DNA from: a virus | Taxonomy: Duplodnaviria > Caudoviricetes | DNA length: 33,908 nt | Virus record (IMG/VR): IMGVR_UViG_3300035670_000784 | Coordinates: 1-33,908 of that record | Direction: 5' to 3' (one strand) | Shown: in pieces, positions 757 to 33,908 of the stretch | Layout: the number at the start of each line of letters is the position of its first letter | Position numbering within the stretch: position 1 is the first letter of the stretch | Made by a program: the position numbers and the translations under genes | Notes under the pieces: generated by a model | What the model was told of the DNA's origin: nothing | The model's database searches: none | What the model saw: only the letters and a program-made list of their open reading frames with translations

Positions 757-776
757 ACCATTAAACAACAAGAACA

Positions 777-1007
777 ATGAAAACAGCAGTAGAATGGTTA
801 GCTAATGAGTTAACATACAAAACAAATGATGGCAGATATATAGTAGATAATACTGATGATGTTACTGATATAGTAAATCAAGCTATTTTGATTTATGAAG
901 AGCAAATTAAAGATGCTTATAAAGCAGGTTATAATAATGGAAATATAGATACTTGCCTAACATCAGAACAATACTACAATGAAACCTTTAAACAACAAGA
1001 ACAATGA
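777..1007 (+). CDS. Cassette gene, MKTAVEW family
   Basis: Starts and ends in junction repeats; paralog of 33577..33810. Confidence 0.75.
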   Translation: MKTAVEWLANELTYKTNDGRYIVDNTDDVTDIVNQAILIYEEQIKDAYKAGYNNGNIDTCLTSEQYYNETFKQQEQ

Positions 1008-1105
1008 AACAAAAACACACTTGGATTGATTCGTGTTTAGGTAATTATGATTGGTATAGACAAATAAGAGGTGGAGTTTGGTATCAGCACGTTTATACTG
1101 ATGAT
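979..1105 (+). repeat. 127-nt exact match to the window end (33782-33908)
   Basis: Base-by-base identity at offset 32803; the first mismatch is at 978/33781. Confidence 0.9.
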
Positions 1106-1222
1106 GCTATTGAATTAAAATTAAATACCCACCCATTTTTTTGGGCAAGATATTTTCAAGATGATAAAAATCTTACAATTGTATTATTTACAGAAACATA
1201 TACTAAACAACAAGAACAATGA
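1004..1222 (+). CDS. Cassette gene, hypothetical (MKQKHTW)
   Basis: Bounded by junction repeats. Confidence 0.7.
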   Translation: MKQKHTWIDSCLGNYDWYRQIRGGVWYQHVYTDDAIELKLNTHPFFWARYFQDDKNLTIVLFTETYTKQQEQ

Positions 1223-1425
1223 AAACAAAATTTTTACAAAGTGTAGATAGATACACAAATGAACAACAAGGAAAAACAGGTTACAAGGCTATTTATAGCA
1301 ATGGAATTGATTTTCAAACATTATTCTTCCCAATTAGAAATGGAGTAGATGTTATTAACATTCCATCAATTATTAACTCAGTTAAAACAATAGATGATTT
1401 AGAAGCTATTGGAGCAGAACTTTAA
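1219..1425 (+). CDS. Cassette gene, hypothetical (MKTKFLQ), copy 1
   Basis: 64/68 aa identical to 33166..33372. Confidence 0.75.
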   Translation: MKTKFLQSVDRYTNEQQGKTGYKAIYSNGIDFQTLFFPIRNGVDVINIPSIINSVKTIDDLEAIGAEL

Positions 1426-1436
1426 AATAAAATAAA

Positions 1437-1664
1437 ATGAAAGAAGAAATAGTAAGAGAATCAGAAGTTGACTCATATGTAGTTGACTTTGGAAAGAATG
1501 GCCAAGGAATCACTAATGAGTTAGTCCTTATTGGCAAAAGGATACAAGATTTGAGTGAATATTATAATGTCTATATGAGCAGCGATAGCTTTATTGATGC
1601 AGCAGATGATGTTTACACTTTGAAATTTATCTTATCTCCTAAAGATGAAAAGCAAGACAATTAA
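1437..1664 (+). CDS. Hypothetical protein
   Basis: A-rich start context, 75 aa. Confidence 0.6.
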   Translation: MKEEIVRESEVDSYVVDFGKNGQGITNELVLIGKRIQDLSEYYNVYMSSDSFIDAADDVYTLKFILSPKDEKQDN

Positions 1665-1986
1665 TGTTCCTATTTATGAATGTGGCCTCACAATTATTCT
1701 TACTGATGACCTTAATGAAGTTGTAAAAAAATACAAGCTGGAAGGCGATTGGGATAATTTTGGGGCTTTAACATTCAGGGATAAGTCAAAGCATAGACAC
1801 TATGTAGTAGCTTTTACTGATGCCAGTCATTTAAGCAATATAGCACACGAGATTGTACATATTAAGAACTATATATTCTTAGGTATAAATGCTAAAATTG
1901 ACCTATATAATGACGAGCCTGAAGCGTACTTAACAGGATGGTTATTTGACCAAATAAATAATTTTTTAAAACAACAAGAACAATGA
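1645..1986 (+). CDS. Zincin-like protein (HExxH ... E)
   Basis: IAHEIVH followed by DEPEAYL; ends in KQQEQ. Confidence 0.6.
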   Translation: MKSKTINVPIYECGLTIILTDDLNEVVKKYKLEGDWDNFGALTFRDKSKHRHYVVAFTDASHLSNIAHEIVHIKNYIFLGINAKIDLYNDEPEAYLTGWLFDQINNFLKQQEQ

Positions 1987-2297
1987 AAACAGCAGTAGAT
2001 TTTTTAGAGAGTGTTGAGGTTGATAAGTTTGCTAAAGATTGTATTAAACATAGATACAATAGTTATGGTGAAAACATAACTTCAGAAACTCAAAAATTAG
2101 ATACAATTTATGGATTTAAACAAGGATTCCAAAAGGCAATTGAACTACTTAAACAAAAAACAATGAAAGAGAAAGACTTAGATTACTTCAAGCAAAATGC
2201 TGAAGAAGATTATATGACAACACCAATTAGTGTGTTAAGGTATATCACAGAATTAGAGCAAAAAATAGAAGAACTAACTAAACAACAAGAACAATGA
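1983..2297 (+). CDS. Cassette gene; apparent fusion of an MKTAV cassette with a second cassette starting at ATG 2163
   Basis: Degenerate junction repeat at 2151-2168, in frame. Confidence 0.65.
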   Translation: MKTAVDFLESVEVDKFAKDCIKHRYNSYGENITSETQKLDTIYGFKQGFQKAIELLKQKTMKEKDLDYFKQNAEEDYMTTPISVLRYITELEQKIEELTKQQEQ

Positions 2298-2521
2298 AAG
2301 CAACGCTACACTTTGACCACGACGAGAGGGATGAGCTGCAAGACGCGATAAATGCGTGGAAATGGAAGCAAATTTGTCACGAGCTTGACCAAGAAATGCG
2401 CTCGGTATTGAAACACGGATACATTAAAAACCGAGAGGCTACAGATGACGAAATGGAAGTAACCGACTATTGGAGAGATAAACTCCGCGAATTAATAAAC
2501 GAAGATAACCTAAACCTATGA
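2294..2521 (+). CDS. Hypothetical protein
   Basis: Starts in the last junction repeat. Confidence 0.65.
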   Translation: MKATLHFDHDERDELQDAINAWKWKQICHELDQEMRSVLKHGYIKNREATDDEMEVTDYWRDKLRELINEDNLNL

Positions 2522-2616
2522 GCCCCGACAAAGAATACCTCGCAGCAATCTGCACAATGCTACTTGTAACGGCAGTAGCAATTATTTTAGTAATCCATCT
2601 AATATTAAATATATAA
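2518..2616 (+). CDS. Small membrane peptide (32 aa)
   Basis: MSPDKEYLAAICTMLLVTAVAIILVIHLILNI*; overlaps both neighbours (ATGA, TAATG). Not in the track. Confidence 0.55.
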   Translation: MSPDKEYLAAICTMLLVTAVAIILVIHLILNI

Positions 2617-3086
2617 TGGAAGTTTATAAAAGTATACCAAATTACGAAGGAAAATATATAGTTAGCAACTATGGAAACGTTAAAAGTTTATTGCGAGGAA
2701 GAGAAAAACTATTAAAACCAAGCATTATAAATACTGGATATTTATTAGTTAATTTGCATAGTAATGGCATTGCAAAATCAAAATTAATACATCAATTAGT
2801 AGCTGAAGCATTTTTAAATCATAAGTCAGATGGTCATAAAATAGTTGTAGACCATATTGATGATAATAAATTAAACAATAATGTTGAAAATCTACAATTA
2901 GTAACTCAAAGATATAATGTATGCAAAACGCAAAGCAGATATAAATCTAAATATAAAGGTGTGCATCGCAATGGTTTAAAATGGAGAGCTGCAATACGTA
3001 TCGACAAAAAATTATTTTATTTGGGTACCTTTAACTGCGAACTTAAAGCTCATTTAGCTTATACAAGCAAACTTAAAACAATATAA
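2616..3086 (+). CDS. NUMOD4-HNH homing endonuclease with AP2-like C-terminus
   Basis: YEGKYIVSNYGNVKS (NUMOD4); HQLVAEAF...VDHIDDNKLNNNVENL (HNH); SKYKGV...KWRAAI...YLGTF (AP2-like). Confidence 0.88.
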   Translation: MEVYKSIPNYEGKYIVSNYGNVKSLLRGREKLLKPSIINTGYLLVNLHSNGIAKSKLIHQLVAEAFLNHKSDGHKIVVDHIDDNKLNNNVENLQLVTQRYNVCKTQSRYKSKYKGVHRNGLKWRAAIRIDKKLFYLGTFNCELKAHLAYTSKLKTI

Positions 3087-6233: not shown

Positions 6234-6714
6234 CCCTAAGAACCCACGACTAATCAAAGACGATAAGTTTAAAAAGTTAGTCAAATCAATACAGGAGTTT
6301 CCGCAGATGCTAGAGCTACGTCCAATAGTTGTAGACGAAAACAATATTGTACTTGGCGGAAATATGCGTTTAAAAGCGTGTAAGGAAGCCGGATTGAAAG
6401 AAGTGTTTATTGTAAAGGCTGATAACCTAACCGAGCTACAGAAAGACGAATTTATTGTAAAAGATAACGTAGGCTTTGGAGAATGGGATTGGGATATGTT
6501 AGCTAACGAATGGGACACAGAAAAGTTAGACGAATGGGGTTTAGACCTTCCTGTTATGTTAGATACTGATGAAGATTTAGAACTGAAGGATTTAAGCAGC
6601 ACTATTGATAATCTTTACCGTATTGAAGTTATTTGTAAGGATGAAGAGCACCAAGAAAACACGTATAATAAATTAATTGAACAAGGATACGAATGCCGAC
6701 TTTTGACATTATAA
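6193..6714 (+). CDS. ParB/Srx N-terminal domain protein
   Basis: NPKNPR...KLVKSI..F...RPIVVD....LGGNMRLKA...KDN. Confidence 0.85.
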   Translation: MQVNKVKITEVKNNPKNPRLIKDDKFKKLVKSIQEFPQMLELRPIVVDENNIVLGGNMRLKACKEAGLKEVFIVKADNLTELQKDEFIVKDNVGFGEWDWDMLANEWDTEKLDEWGLDLPVMLDTDEDLELKDLSSTIDNLYRIEVICKDEEHQENTYNKLIEQGYECRLLTL

Positions 6715-7757
6715 AAGAAGTAAAGCCGACTAAAACGTTTAGGGTGGCTTCTGTTATTGGTAAGTTTGATTTACAATCTGAAAACGTAGTTGAACACTTT
6801 AAAGGGGATATCGCTATACCTGATCAGTGGCAAGTAGGTCTAATCGTAGGAAAAAGCGGAACAGGAAAAACTACAATAGCTAAACAATTATTTGAAGATG
6901 CTTATGTAACATCCTATGAATACACGAAAGAAACTGTATTAGATGATATGCCAAAAGAATGTAGTGTAGAAGAAATTACATCAGCATTCAATTCAGTAGG
7001 CTTTTCAAGTCCACCGAGTTGGTTAAAACCTTATTCTGTACTAAGTAATGGACAAAAGATGCGAGTAGATTTAGCTCGTGCCATTTTAGAAAAAAACAAA
7101 CTATTTGTATTTGATGAGTTTACAAGCGTAGTAGATAGAAACGTAGCTCAGATTGGTTCATTTGCTATGCAGAAAGCAATCAGAAAGACGGATAAAAAAT
7201 TTATAGCAGTTACTTGTCACTTTGACGTACAAGATTGGCTGCTTCCAGATTGGGTATTTAATACCGATACAATGACCTTTCAAAGTTTTGAAGGGCAAAA
7301 AAAAAATAGACCAGATATCAAATTTGAAATATTCAATTACGGAGATAAAAGCATCTGGAAAATGTTTGCTAAGCACCATTATTTAAGTCATTCGCATAAC
7401 AACGCTGCTAATGTGTTTGTAGCTACGGTTAATGATGAAGTAGCAGGGTTTATCAGTGTACTTCATTTCCCGCATCCAAAAGTAAAGAATATGAAGAAAG
7501 TACATAGATTGGTTATATTGCCGGATTATCAAGGTGCTGGCATTGGATTGAGATTACTAAATGAAATAGGCAAGATATATAAACACGAACAACAAAGATT
7601 CAATATAATGACTTCTGCACCAAGTTTAATATTTGCATTAAAAAAATCAAAGCAATGGGATTGCGTTAGATATGGAAGAGTATCAGAAGCAAAAAAAGGA
7701 GTTTTAGAAGGGACTACTTCAAAGAACAGAATAACCGCATCATTTGAATTAAAATAA
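6693..7757 (+). CDS. ABC-type ATPase fused to a GNAT acetyltransferase
   Basis: GKSGTGKT, LSNGQ, VFDEF and CH motifs; RLVILPDYQGAGIG acetyl-CoA motif. Confidence 0.85.
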   Translation: MPTFDIIKEVKPTKTFRVASVIGKFDLQSENVVEHFKGDIAIPDQWQVGLIVGKSGTGKTTIAKQLFEDAYVTSYEYTKETVLDDMPKECSVEEITSAFNSVGFSSPPSWLKPYSVLSNGQKMRVDLARAILEKNKLFVFDEFTSVVDRNVAQIGSFAMQKAIRKTDKKFIAVTCHFDVQDWLLPDWVFNTDTMTFQSFEGQKKNRPDIKFEIFNYGDKSIWKMFAKHHYLSHSHNNAANVFVATVNDEVAGFISVLHFPHPKVKNMKKVHRLVILPDYQGAGIGLRLLNEIGKIYKHEQQRFNIMTSAPSLIFALKKSKQWDCVRYGRVSEAKKGVLEGTTSKNRITASFELK

Positions 7758-29931: not shown

Positions 29932-30228
29932 ATGGATTTATCACTAAAGTTATTATGGGCCAAAACAACTGTTTGGACGGTAGCCCAAAGAATCAAAAAC
30001 GTCAGAGAAAAACTAGAACAAGAAAAGCCTAACGCAAAAGATTACATACAAGGCGGTAAGGAAAGCGAGCAGTATTTACTTGAAACGCTAAACGTAATCA
30101 ATCTGCTAGAGGATGAGATTACAAGCTTAAACCGCGAATTAAACCAACTAGCGAGAAGAAACGCGCAGCTCCGCGTAGCATACGACGAACTAAAAAACGA
30201 ACTAAAATTTAAAAACGTAGAATTATGA
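29932..30228 (+). CDS. Coiled-coil hypothetical protein
   Basis: 98 aa. Confidence 0.6.
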   Translation: MDLSLKLLWAKTTVWTVAQRIKNVREKLEQEKPNAKDYIQGGKESEQYLLETLNVINLLEDEITSLNRELNQLARRNAQLRVAYDELKNELKFKNVEL

Positions 30229-30458
30229 AACCAACAGCAGTAGAATTTTATAGAGAAGAATATAAAGCTTTAGTTATCCTTAGAAAATCCAAGTTTAAAA
30301 CGGAACAAGAAATCTTTGAAAAAGCCAAAGAAATGGAAAAAATCGAAAAACTAAAACGCCAGCTTTTTATCGGAAAAGTACAAGAGATTATAGGCTTTGA
30401 AAAAACGATTGAACTACTTAAAGAATGTAACGAAACATTTAAAGATGCCGCGTTGTAA
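30225..30458 (+). CDS. Hypothetical protein, MKTAVE-like N-terminus
   Basis: MKPTAVEF...EKAKEMEK resembles 33577..33810. Confidence 0.6.
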   Translation: MKPTAVEFYREEYKALVILRKSKFKTEQEIFEKAKEMEKIEKLKRQLFIGKVQEIIGFEKTIELLKECNETFKDAAL

Positions 30459-31312: not shown

Positions 31313-31840
31313 ATGAAAAATCTATTTAAACATTTAGCAGCCTTCCAACAAGAAGTACCTGTAATTCACAAAGCTACTCAGGGCTTCGGCTATTCTTACG
31401 CTGATCTTCCGGCTATCTTTGAAAAAATCAATCCGTTGTTAGCTAAACACGGACTAGGATTCACGCAGTTGATCGAAACTATTGAAGGCGCTAACTACAT
31501 TAAAACAATCGTCTTTCACGTTGAAACAGGCGAGAATTTATCAAGTTGCGTTTTGATTCCTTACGTACAACTCAAGGGTATGAATGACTACCAAGGCTTT
31601 GGCTCTGGGGTAACTTACTACCGCCGCTACGCATTGAGCGCTGCACTTGGTTTGGTTACAGACAAAGATACAGACGGATCAGGAGAGCAAGTAAAAAGCG
31701 AAAAGAAACTACCTGCTATTGATGCTAAGCGCTTTCAAGAAGCCGTTAAGGCAATCGGTACCGGAACGTTCAACAGAGCGAACCTAGAAAAGCATTTTAG
31801 CTTAACTGCTGAGCAAACTGAAATACTAAACGCGCTATGA
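31313..31840 (+). CDS. erf: ERF-family single-strand annealing protein
   Basis: YADL...GSGVTYYRRYALSAALGL...DTDG. Confidence 0.88.
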   Translation: MKNLFKHLAAFQQEVPVIHKATQGFGYSYADLPAIFEKINPLLAKHGLGFTQLIETIEGANYIKTIVFHVETGENLSSCVLIPYVQLKGMNDYQGFGSGVTYYRRYALSAALGLVTDKDTDGSGEQVKSEKKLPAIDAKRFQEAVKAIGTGTFNRANLEKHFSLTAEQTEILNAL

Positions 31841-32505
31841 AAGTAAGAGCAAGCGCACTAGCGAAAATGATGGCTACTCCCCGATCAAAAGGGGAGCTGC
31901 TTTCTCAAACTGCAAAAAGCTACATTAAAGAAGTTGTATTGCAGGATAAGTACGGAATTTACAAAGAGTTCAATTCCAGATACACGGACAAAGGTAACCA
32001 AACGGAAGATGAGGCTATACAGTTGGTTTCTGAAGTTATGGATTTAGGATTCGTACTAAAAAACGAAGAAAAGTTTGAAAACGAATTTATAAAAGGAACT
32101 CCGGACGTAATTACAGAAAACCTAATCATAGATACAAAGGTTAGTTGGTCCGCTGCTACGTTTCCTTTCTTTGAAGATGAGCTACCAAATTCTGACTACT
32201 ATTGGCAAATGCAGGCTTACATGTGGATGACAGGAAAGCGCCAAGCCGTTGTAGCTTACTGCCTAATTAATACGCCTTATTTGATTCTGGAAGATGAGAT
32301 ACGCCGCGAGCATTGGAAGCAGAACGTAATTGGAGAAAGCGACGAGATACGCGCATACGTAGAAGCTCAGCACAATTTTGATCATATACCAAAACACGAA
32401 CGCGTTAAGTTGTTTTATGTAGATTACAATGAGCAAGATATTGAACGCGCTAAAGAAAAAATACAAATAGGATGTGTACTATACAATCAACTAATGAACC
32501 AATGA
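31837..32505 (+). CDS. YqaJ/lambda-type PD-(D/E)XK exonuclease
   Basis: RAS...GN..E..A...GTPD...DTK...YYWQMQAYM. Confidence 0.8.
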   Translation: MKVRASALAKMMATPRSKGELLSQTAKSYIKEVVLQDKYGIYKEFNSRYTDKGNQTEDEAIQLVSEVMDLGFVLKNEEKFENEFIKGTPDVITENLIIDTKVSWSAATFPFFEDELPNSDYYWQMQAYMWMTGKRQAVVAYCLINTPYLILEDEIRREHWKQNVIGESDEIRAYVEAQHNFDHIPKHERVKLFYVDYNEQDIERAKEKIQIGCVLYNQLMNQ

Positions 32506-32703: not shown

Positions 32704-32895
32704 ATGAAAGAGCTTATTATAAAAGAAATTCTAGATAGATACGAAAAAGCTATTAATGAATTATCATACTACAAAAGAAGAGTAGAAAATCACGAGCAAC
32801 AAATAAGAGCTGCTAACCGGGAAAATCAGCAGTTAAAATCTGATAGGCATTTTCTTGAAGCGCAATTAGACGAACTTAAAAAAACAAAACAATGA
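32704..32895 (+). CDS. Coiled-coil hypothetical protein
   Basis: 63 aa. Confidence 0.55.
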   Translation: MKELIIKEILDRYEKAINELSYYKRRVENHEQQIRAANRENQQLKSDRHFLEAQLDELKKTKQ

Positions 32896-33110
32896 ACTTA
32901 AAGCTACAAGTAGAAGACCCGATTGTCCTCAAAGTAATGAGCAAGTTTTATGACCGATCACAACGAGGAATAGAGAAGTACGGTACAATGTTAACACGAA
33001 CTGATTTAAGTGCGTTAGAATGGCTTAATCACGCTCAGGACGAAGCTATGGACTTTTGTTTGTACTTGGAGCGTTTGAAAGACGAAGTGAAACAATTTAA
33101 ACAAGGATAA
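32892..33110 (+). CDS. Conserved small phage protein, copy 2
   Basis: Homolog of 467..724 with a divergent C-terminus. Confidence 0.7.
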   Translation: MNLKLQVEDPIVLKVMSKFYDRSQRGIEKYGTMLTRTDLSALEWLNHAQDEAMDFCLYLERLKDEVKQFKQG

Positions 33111-33149
33111 GGGGTAAAAATTGCCACATATCTAAACACGAAATGTAAA
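33101..33149 (+). repeat. 49-nt array leader, copy 2
   Basis: Identical to 708-756. Confidence 0.9.
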
Positions 33150-33165
33150 CTAAACAACAAGAACA

Positions 33166-33372
33166 ATGAAAACAAAATTTTTACAAAGTGTAGAGAGATA
33201 CACAAACAAACAACAAGGAAAAACAGGATACAAGGCTATTTATAGCAATGGAATTGATTTTCAAACATTATTCTTCCCAATTAGAAATGGAGTAGATGTT
33301 ATTAACATTCCTTCAATTATTAACTCAGCTCAAACAATAGATGATTTAGAAGCTATTGGGGCAGAACTTTAA
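33166..33372 (+). CDS. Cassette gene MKTKFLQ, copy 2
   Basis: 4 aa differences from 1219..1425. Confidence 0.75.
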   Translation: MKTKFLQSVERYTNKQQGKTGYKAIYSNGIDFQTLFFPIRNGVDVINIPSIINSAQTIDDLEAIGAEL

Positions 33373-33384
33373 ACAACAAGAACA

Positions 33385-33564
33385 ATGAAAGTAGTATATG
33401 AACAAGATTTAGGTATGGAAACCTATGCAGAAGTAAGGCTAACACCTAACAAAAAGTATGTAGTATTTGTAACTCCTATGTTTGGAGGTGATTTCTTTCA
33501 GTACACACAAGATGAATTTGATACTTTGGAAGAGGCAAAAAAATTTGTTAACTCAATTACTTAA
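33385..33564 (+). CDS. Cassette gene (59 aa)
   Basis: MKVVYEQDLGMETYAEVRL...FDTLEEAKKFVNSIT*, bounded by repeats. Not in the track. Confidence 0.7.
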   Translation: MKVVYEQDLGMETYAEVRLTPNKKYVVFVTPMFGGDFFQYTQDEFDTLEEAKKFVNSIT

Positions 33565-33576
33565 ACAACAAGAACA

Positions 33577-33810
33577 ATGAAAACAGCAGTAGAATGGCTT
33601 GAAAAAGAAGTAAACCAATATGGAATTTTAACAAAAGGCTTAGTACTTAATCTTCTAAGTCAAGCTAAAGAAATGGATAAACAAGCCCACAAAGAAACTT
33701 GGGATGTAGCACATCAAGCGGGTAGATTTGAAGGCAAAGGTATTGCAGAAGAAAATTGGCAAACATTTGAAGAGTATTGGGATGAAACCTTTAAACAACA
33801 AGAACAATGA
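33577..33810 (+). CDS. Cassette gene, MKTAVEW family
   Basis: Bounded by repeats; ends ETFKQQEQ like 777..1007. Confidence 0.75.
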   Translation: MKTAVEWLEKEVNQYGILTKGLVLNLLSQAKEMDKQAHKETWDVAHQAGRFEGKGIAEENWQTFEEYWDETFKQQEQ

Positions 33811-33908
33811 AACAAAAACACACTTGGATTGATTCGTGTTTAGGTAATTATGATTGGTATAGACAAATAAGAGGTGGAGTTTGGTATCAGCACGTTTATA
33901 CTGATGAT
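33807..33908 (+). CDS. Truncated copy of the MKQKHTW cassette (= 1004..1105)
   Basis: Part of the 127-nt overlap. Confidence 0.75.
   Translation, partial: MKQKHTWIDSCLGNYDWYRQIRGGVWYQHVYTDD

Follow-up and report, generated by a model that had tools for sequence, protein, structure and literature searches.

The window, a 33,908-nt stretch comprising positions 1 to 33,908 of IMG/VR record IMGVR_UViG_3300035670_000784 (Duplodnaviria; Caudoviricetes), represents a tailed phage genome of about 33 kb with terminase, portal, capsid-region, lysis, helicase, NinG, ERF, and exonuclease genes. Small genes at both of its ends are joined by an exact 20-nt repeat, referred to here as the joint. Nine exact copies were found on the plus strand, at the coordinates given in a first-pass annotation of the sequence (763, 990, 1205, 1969, 2280, 33152, 33371, 33563, and 33793), compared to a mean of 0.02 copies and a maximum of 1 in 100 shuffles. 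No additional copies with 1 to 3 substitutions were present in the window.

As that annotation had also proposed, each of the nine copies contains the ATG of the following gene, which encodes 59 to 104 amino acids. At five of the nine (990, 1205, 1969, 2280, and 33793), the upstream protein is terminated as KQQEQ* through an ATGA overlap, and at 33371 and 33563, a TAA on the 5' edge is the stop codon of the upstream gene. This edge rule did not extend to 763 and 33152, where the TAA is present yet the preceding gene stops earlier (at 724 and 33110, respectively), leaving an intergenic stretch before the repeat. The joint has A at positions -3, -6, -12, and -13 and contains no Shine-Dalgarno (SD) core (AGGAG), with the ATG lying within it. 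No palindrome or pairing was detected in the joint, which was unpaired in all five RNA folds, and the junctions at 1205 and 2280 were predicted to be without structure. A sequence scan found TAnnTTTG, which we take to be the Bacteroidota -7 box, at none of the repeats in the window. Among 60 copies found without a repeat search, T was conserved before the repeat in 97% and the three A's after the ATG in 95, 95, and 83%, indicating a fixed core of about 19 nt; the C and G positions of the joint were 95 to 100% conserved.

All array features given here are on the plus strand. The first array is preceded by minor-branch copies of an anchor gene (467 to 724; phrog_17558/23240, with no assigned function) and of a head-of-array dyad composed of two arms and a 9-nt spacer (712 to 740). 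The first joint (763 to 782), also of the minor branch, heads cassette A (777 to 1007; 76 amino acids), which has a TAVE-type start, ends in KQQEQ, and has no family match. The joint at 990 to 1009 heads cassette B (1004 to 1222; 72 amino acids), whose family of 5 has 5 different upstream and 5 different downstream neighbors, and that at 1205 to 1224 heads cassette C (1219 to 1425; 68 amino acids), from a family of 11 with 7 upstream and 7 downstream neighbors. Cassette D (1437 to 1664; 75 amino acids) is without a repeat here and repeat headed in 3 of 5 other segments, and gene E (1645 to 1986; 113 amino acids; phrog_1365, unknown function), which ends in KQQEQ, accompanies D in 2 other segments. 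After the joint at 1969 to 1988 comes a 104-amino-acid fusion of two cassettes (1983 to 2297), inside which a tenth, decayed joint (2151 to 2165) is 2 nt short and read through in frame. The last joint of the array (2280 to 2299), bridged by a run X1 contig (1970 to 3137), heads a terminal gene (2294 to 2521; 75 amino acids) with 12 upstream versus 3 downstream neighbors; among 41 relatives of this gene found by protein, 22 have the exact repeat ahead of it. The description of positions 763 to 2299 as an array joined by the 20-mer was thus correct for the exact repeats and incorrect for the junctions at 1425/1437 and 1645/1664, which have none, for the decayed copy, and for the length of the core.

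At the other end of the window, main-genome copies of the anchor gene (32892 to 33110) and the dyad (33105 to 33133) precede the first joint of the main array (33152 to 33171), which heads cassette C' (33166 to 33372; 94% identical to C). The joint at 33371 to 33390, bridged by a run X1 contig and forming a junction also seen in segment L274, is followed by cassette X (33385 to 33564; 59 amino acids), and the joint at 33563 to 33582 is followed by cassette A' (33577 to 33810; 77 amino acids), a member of a TAVE..AKEM family that contains an inner 17-nt joint at 33661 to 33677. The final joint (33793 to 33812) heads cassette B, which is cut by the contig end. Positions 990 and 33793 had been suspected to be one locus; this is true starting 11 nt ahead of the repeat, with 116 of 116 downstream positions identical, and the genes upstream differ.

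Spread of the joint and breakpoints at it

An estimated 510 stretches in IMG/VR contain the 20-mer. In 596 Gb of prokaryote genomes, 58 single matches to an 18-nt form were found, with a second copy within 3 kb at 0 of 58 matches when at most one mismatch was allowed and at 2 of 58 at two mismatches. The comparison set consisted of 506 viral loci merged into 339 segments, plus two window pieces, and contained 714 copies on the same strand versus 2 on the opposite strand. Carriers were 30 to 174 kb long with 1 to 21 clustered copies (47 of the 49 records searched, the other 2 having been chosen by the head element). Cassette C' was 97% identical in a 30-kb carrier, 95% in the 174-kb record G001, and 92 to 94% in the 66-kb record G029. 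Only the 30-kb record G033, among five tested, matched the window capsid and terminase (25 and 32%); G001 and G029 had no detectable match to either protein.

The discreteness of the joint was examined at 1,144 gene starts in 93 segments that had been retrieved through proteins or the head element and not through the repeat. A 14-nt core was exact at 47 starts and present with 1, 2, and 3 mismatches at 6, 5, and 8 starts (0.001 expected), and the background count peaked at eight mismatches, giving a bimodal spectrum. Exactness was alike in coding (234/275) and noncoding (226/271) contexts. The joint is therefore not maintained by the KQQEQ peptide, and a selected peptide tag was ruled out.

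For the analysis of breakpoints, genes were called by a simple custom routine (4,316 genes, 647 of them repeat started, with a median of 67 amino acids), so that the control classes carry some noise. Junctions at which a gene was shared between two contigs at ≥90% identity were scored by whether the DNA across the junction was related or unrelated. With the downstream gene as the anchor, upstream DNA was unrelated at 412 of 446 repeat junctions versus 460 of 1,109 nearby ordinary small-gene junctions; when the upstream gene served as the anchor, the figures for unrelated DNA across the junction were 285 of 321 and 96 of 551, respectively. Relatedness was controlled for with 160 contig pairs having both kinds of junction, in which the neighbor differed at 169 of 191 repeat junctions and 93 of 410 ordinary ones. 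Of 44 disjoint pairs, 30 had the higher rate at the repeat and 3 had the lower rate there (sign test, P = 1.4e-6). Upstream identity fell from 0.92 at position -15 to 0.51 at -16 and 0.3 by -30, and downstream identity fell from 0.99 at +3 to 0.37 to 0.47 at +6/+7. The exact bases common to unrelated junctions had a median of 20 (≥31 in 3.6% of pairs and ≥55 in 0.05%); joints with short sides in the run comparisons were left out of the counts.

Comparison of empty and filled sites yielded 36 cases with a repeat on both sides of the insert (4 within-contig duplications and 32 between contigs) and 37 in which the empty site had a repeat and the filled form no more than one. Of the 75 family pairs that co-occurred, 8 were seen in both gene orders, with 3 of these between contigs and hence true reversals, and nine cassette types had at least two different upstream partners, each in at least two segments. 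Two repeat-bounded tandem duplications were found: three cassettes at a contig end (L001:3417-4510), possibly a loop or circle, and diverged cassettes in mid-contig (L283, on the contig of L248). Orders thus vary and breakpoints lie at the repeat, the opposite of the fixed order and unrelated breakpoints that the first-pass annotation had named as evidence against a combined recombination joint and start signal, and the excess of swaps within the same contig pairs agrees with that idea.

Head element, cassettes, and window genome

The dyad, which may be an operator, an origin, or a processing site, heads 29 of 75 arrays. It was present in 15 of 33 records and single copy in each of them. Within 600 nt, 96 of 122 dyads had a repeat on the downstream side and 3 on the upstream side. 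A flipped-spacer form found without use of the repeat (L622 to L655) had a repeat downstream in 31 of 34 cases, mostly at 45 or 69 nt, and upstream in 0. In records G005 and G012, the dyad lies 6 to 8 kb away from the repeats. The spacer occurs in both orientations (reversed in 8 of 29 variants); an RNA hairpin was disfavored, because reversal replaces a T-G pair with C-A and the variants showed no compensatory changes. No head-biased insertion was detected in the small sample of 25 arrays, where the share of singletons was 0.32 at the first, 0.33 at middle, 0.44 at the second-last, and 0.24 at the last position; CRISPR- or integron-like polar insertion was not seen.

The 616 repeat-started genes encoding at least 28 amino acids fell into 352 families (Chao1, about 720). 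Of 324 representatives of at least 40 amino acids, 150 were compared with Pfam, and 150, partly the same, were compared with PHROGs. Seven of 150 passed the Pfam cutoff (DUF3127 twice, DUF7695, thioredoxin, DnaA C-terminal helix-turn-helix, MT-A70, and tail tube), a Lar match fell below it, and PHROGs names were limited to SSB twice and one methyltransferase. The array proteins of the window had no Pfam match. No anti-defense family, a role that had been suggested for the cassettes, was among the representatives searched in either database. Genes for an MT-A70 methyltransferase (L053:1310-2443, minus strand), a thioredoxin (L288:4441-4686), and a tail-tube-like protein (L335:3559-4005, minus strand) start at the joint, showing that larger genes of known families can also follow it.

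A TAVE-type start motif was present in 144 of 530 distinct cassettes, and 77 contain the conserved 17-nt inner joint. This inner joint is a swap point for half-genes: of 46 pairs that matched at ≥90% identity over one half, 43 fell below 60% over the other. A variant of it (AKEM) lies at 30321 to 30337 (plus strand) in a TAVE-type gene outside the array. The TAVE..AKEM family of mini-proteins, represented in the window at 33577 to 33810 and 30225 to 30458, is very large and unnamed, with 430 database matches to one member. A structural model of A' (predicted local distance difference test score, 77.6) contained three predicted helices and had no match at an E value of ≤0.001 in viral or PDB libraries, and its Atlas look-alikes were unnamed viral clusters. 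The TAVE-type N terminus may resemble the capsid-targeting sequence of T4 internal proteins. These T4 proteins are described in PMC3012670.

An intact repeat follows the left half of the fused cassette in 9 other segments and precedes its right half in 4; L253 and L289 carry the same fusion (three contigs including the window). A second type of joint, with upstream proteins ending in TFKSE, was found in 33 copies in 26 merged segments, none of them in the window; 29 of the 33 copies lie within 1 kb of a KQQEQ joint, and arrays therefore mix joint types.

In run X1, depth was about 5.4 over positions 1 to 546, 33 over cassette B, and 12.6 to 16 over the remainder. Both the anchor gene and the dyad occur twice in the window, though the dyad is otherwise single copy. 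The depth step and the second copies indicate that the contig probably joins two phages, with the first kilobase (1 to about 980) from a second phage, and that the main genome would probably close at cassette B, at about 32.8 kb. Positions 1 to about 980 also carry the end of another SSB-like gene. At least two window junctions (2280 and 33371) were bridged, among the run X1 contigs listed.

A Bacteroidota host is suggested by SD-less A-rich starts and by TATATTTG motifs, which we take to be of the Bacteroidota promoter type. Four intergenic TATATTTG copies (3569, 26163, 27991, and 31004) lie inside a longer shared A/T-rich motif and are likely early promoters of this type. A NUMOD4-HNH homing endonuclease gene (2616 to 3086) lies directly 3' of the array and was not seen in the loci of relatives at 75% identity, and an ABC-type ATPase fused to a GNAT acetyltransferase (6693 to 7757) is encoded between a ParB-like gene and the terminase region. 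No Rfam families or tRNAs were found in the window. A blastn comparison of the array with 50,697 annotated phages yielded nothing beyond uninformative matches of 23 to 78 nt and, by that route, no cultured relative.

Explanations for exchange at the joint

That the joint is an exchange point for mini-genes is well supported. The 19-base joint probably marks whole-gene differences between phages because general phage recombination crosses over inside it, without a dedicated integrase. The crossover could be made by any annealase or recombinase of the phage or host, which in the window would be ERF. Genes for an ERF single-strand annealing protein (31313 to 31840; PF04404, E = 1.3e-29) and an exonuclease (31837 to 32505; phrog_5715, E = 1e-57; YqaJ below the cutoff) are present on the plus strand where the first-pass annotation had placed them. 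Its idea of an integrase-free platform is borne out by the lack of tyrosine integrase (PF00589) in 49 records (positive control, 14/14) and of any integrase among the 55 window open reading frames searched with PHROGs. Dependence on ERF itself is not: ERF was found in 20 of 31 near-complete records, all of 29 to 37 kb, and carriers of 52 to 174 kb were without it. Among 17 records without ERF, Rad52 was found in 1, AAA_24 above the cutoff in 4, a RecA-like protein in 1, and none of these in several. Adenines at -3, -6, -12, and -13 raise initiation in Flavobacterium johnsoniae, according to PMC6847099. With all four in the joint, which holds the start codon and often ends the preceding gene, an incoming gene would bring a favorable start with it and would be translated. 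The exactness of the joint may be kept since copies matching the community standard could go on trading genes; a good start by itself explains neither the fixed C and G positions nor the scarcity of the joint in hosts, and the KQQEQ peptide does not account for them.

Several observations weigh against crossover by general recombination at the joint. All data are metagenome assemblies, with exchange read from contigs, and only 77 of 668 junction types occurred in two segments, most being seen once. Identity within the repeat itself is by construction, downstream-anchored breakpoints at ordinary junctions likewise fall at the start codon, and ordinary junctions swap too (23 to 41%). Empty-versus-filled comparisons without a repeat at the empty site numbered 184, a count to which automatic gene calls add noise. 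No ERF, Rad52, AAA_24, or RecA was found in the near-complete 57- to 67-kb records G005, G012, G020, G029, and G047, in which RecT was not searched for. The minimum homology given in PMC3945230 is 23 to 27 bp for Red-beta and 31 to 34 bp for RecA; since the median of 20 shared bases is below both, plain annealing at the joint may be inefficient.

This shortfall also favors a dedicated system, a true integron analogue in which an unrecognized sequence-specific phage or host enzyme acts on the joint, with the dyad perhaps as its landing site. The conservation of C and G positions that are not known initiation determinants and the single-copy dyad upstream of the array (96 versus 3 of 122; flipped form, 31/34 versus 0) point the same way. 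Such a system nonetheless appears unlikely, given the 49 records without tyrosine integrase, a joint that is nonpalindromic and unpaired in all five folds, a dyad that heads only 29 of 75 arrays and lies 6 to 8 kb off in G005 and G012, new cassettes that are not enriched near the head in 25 arrays, and at least two other joints of different sequence that act alike. Were the joint only an optimal SD-less start and coupling signal under selection at each junction, genes would move by illegitimate recombination and viable products would break at gene borders, in keeping with the four favorable adenines, the unstructured junctions at 1205 and 2280, and the ordinary breakpoints also at gene starts. 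This explanation is largely refuted by the bimodal mismatch spectrum and by the roughly 4-fold swap rate within the same contig pairs; hosts, moreover, do not use the joint (58 single matches in 596 Gb, 0/58 with a nearby second copy at ≤1 mismatch), and the inner joint swaps half-genes in mid-gene, all of which makes it very improbable.

Assemblers might also jump at the repeat from one co-occurring phage to another and thereby produce false neighbors. The apparent chimerism of the window contig (depth and second anchor and dyad copies), the many junction types seen once, and the position of the L001 duplication at a contig end are consistent with this, but only 3.6% of unrelated junction pairs share at least 31 exact bases and 0.05% at least 55, and shared runs of this length would not lead a long-k assembler astray. 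Run X1 contigs bridge two window junctions, one of which recurs in L274, nine cassette types have repeated alternative upstream partners, and the fused cassette occurs in three contigs, which leaves assembly artifact as the least probable of these explanations. A broader proposal is a community-wide standard for phage gene trading through a sequence-specific mechanism, with a single-copy dyad and nested 17- to 19-nt joints by which unrelated Bacteroidota phages would capture whole genes and combine half-genes into new proteins, a combinatorial library of host-directed mini-proteins with no known integrase; it is a speculative one, and we regard it as rather doubtful.

Known systems and significance

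Integrons consist of IntI, attI, and attC and carry rows of same-strand, promoterless, mostly single-gene cassettes. The arrays here share with them same-strand, promoterless, single-gene cassettes of unknown function in variable order (714 versus 2 copies), but the integron likeness drawn in the first-pass annotation goes no further: there is no integrase, no hairpin attC site, and no polar insertion at an attI-like head.

Promoter-early stem-loops (PeSLs) of T4-type phages place a promoter and a terminator hairpin before ORFans in variable regions (PMC2839356 and PMC4122927), and mini-circles have been demonstrated for them (Arbiol et al. 2010, PMC2839356; Comeau et al. 2014, PMC4122927). 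Their authors draw the comparison with integrons. PeSLs are the modern form of the linker sequences of Botstein and Campbell. As with PeSLs, a repeated expression signal before variable-region ORFans provides homology for gain, loss, and replacement without an integrase, and indels and replacements here end at the joint upstream of ORFans in variable regions. Unlike PeSLs, the window repeats have no promoter motif (by scanning for the motif presumed above) and the joint has no terminator stem-loop. With its promoter and terminator hairpin, a PeSL cassette is its own transcription unit, whereas the joint is an unstructured 19-nt start/stop inside an operon, identical across 30- to 174-kb phages with unrelated virion genes and nested with a second joint that shuffles half-genes.

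SAS, the start-associated sequence of cluster K mycobacteriophages (SAS/ESAS), is a motif of 13 bp with an SD core 3 to 7 nt ahead of the start codon; it remains attached to conserved gene families and has a proposed role in initiation (Pope et al. 2011, PMC3203893). Like these, the joint is a short asymmetric repeat at the starts of nonstructural genes, in one orientation and nearly absent from hosts, and some SAS are paired with an inverted repeat (PMC3203893). Unlike them, it lacks an SD sequence, takes in the ATG and the upstream stop codon, and has a measured excess of breakpoints; the available text of PMC3203893 does not describe a swap-point role. Literature word searches, which could not be made by sequence and left most subscription journals outside their scope, returned no paper on the joint motif. 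The joint is new as a variant of the linker-mediated shuffling seen in PeSLs, in which the linker is a translation start and not a promoter.

Whether phage mosaics arise from conserved linkers, as in the Botstein-Campbell proposal, or from illegitimate recombination and selection is an old question, for which PeSLs are one of few worked cases (PMC2839356). Contigs of phages like the one in the window can be chimeric at shared cassettes and call for caution. The joint is a measurable case of a linker, with one exact sequence, about 350 sampled cassette families, and phages with unrelated virion genes that share it; a 19-base substrate would suffice for a direct test of the linker model. These arrays show that new proteins can arise in two ways, through swaps of half-genes and through fusion after the loss of 2 nt, and the joint can be used to search for hundreds of mobile mini-genes that are apparently turning over.
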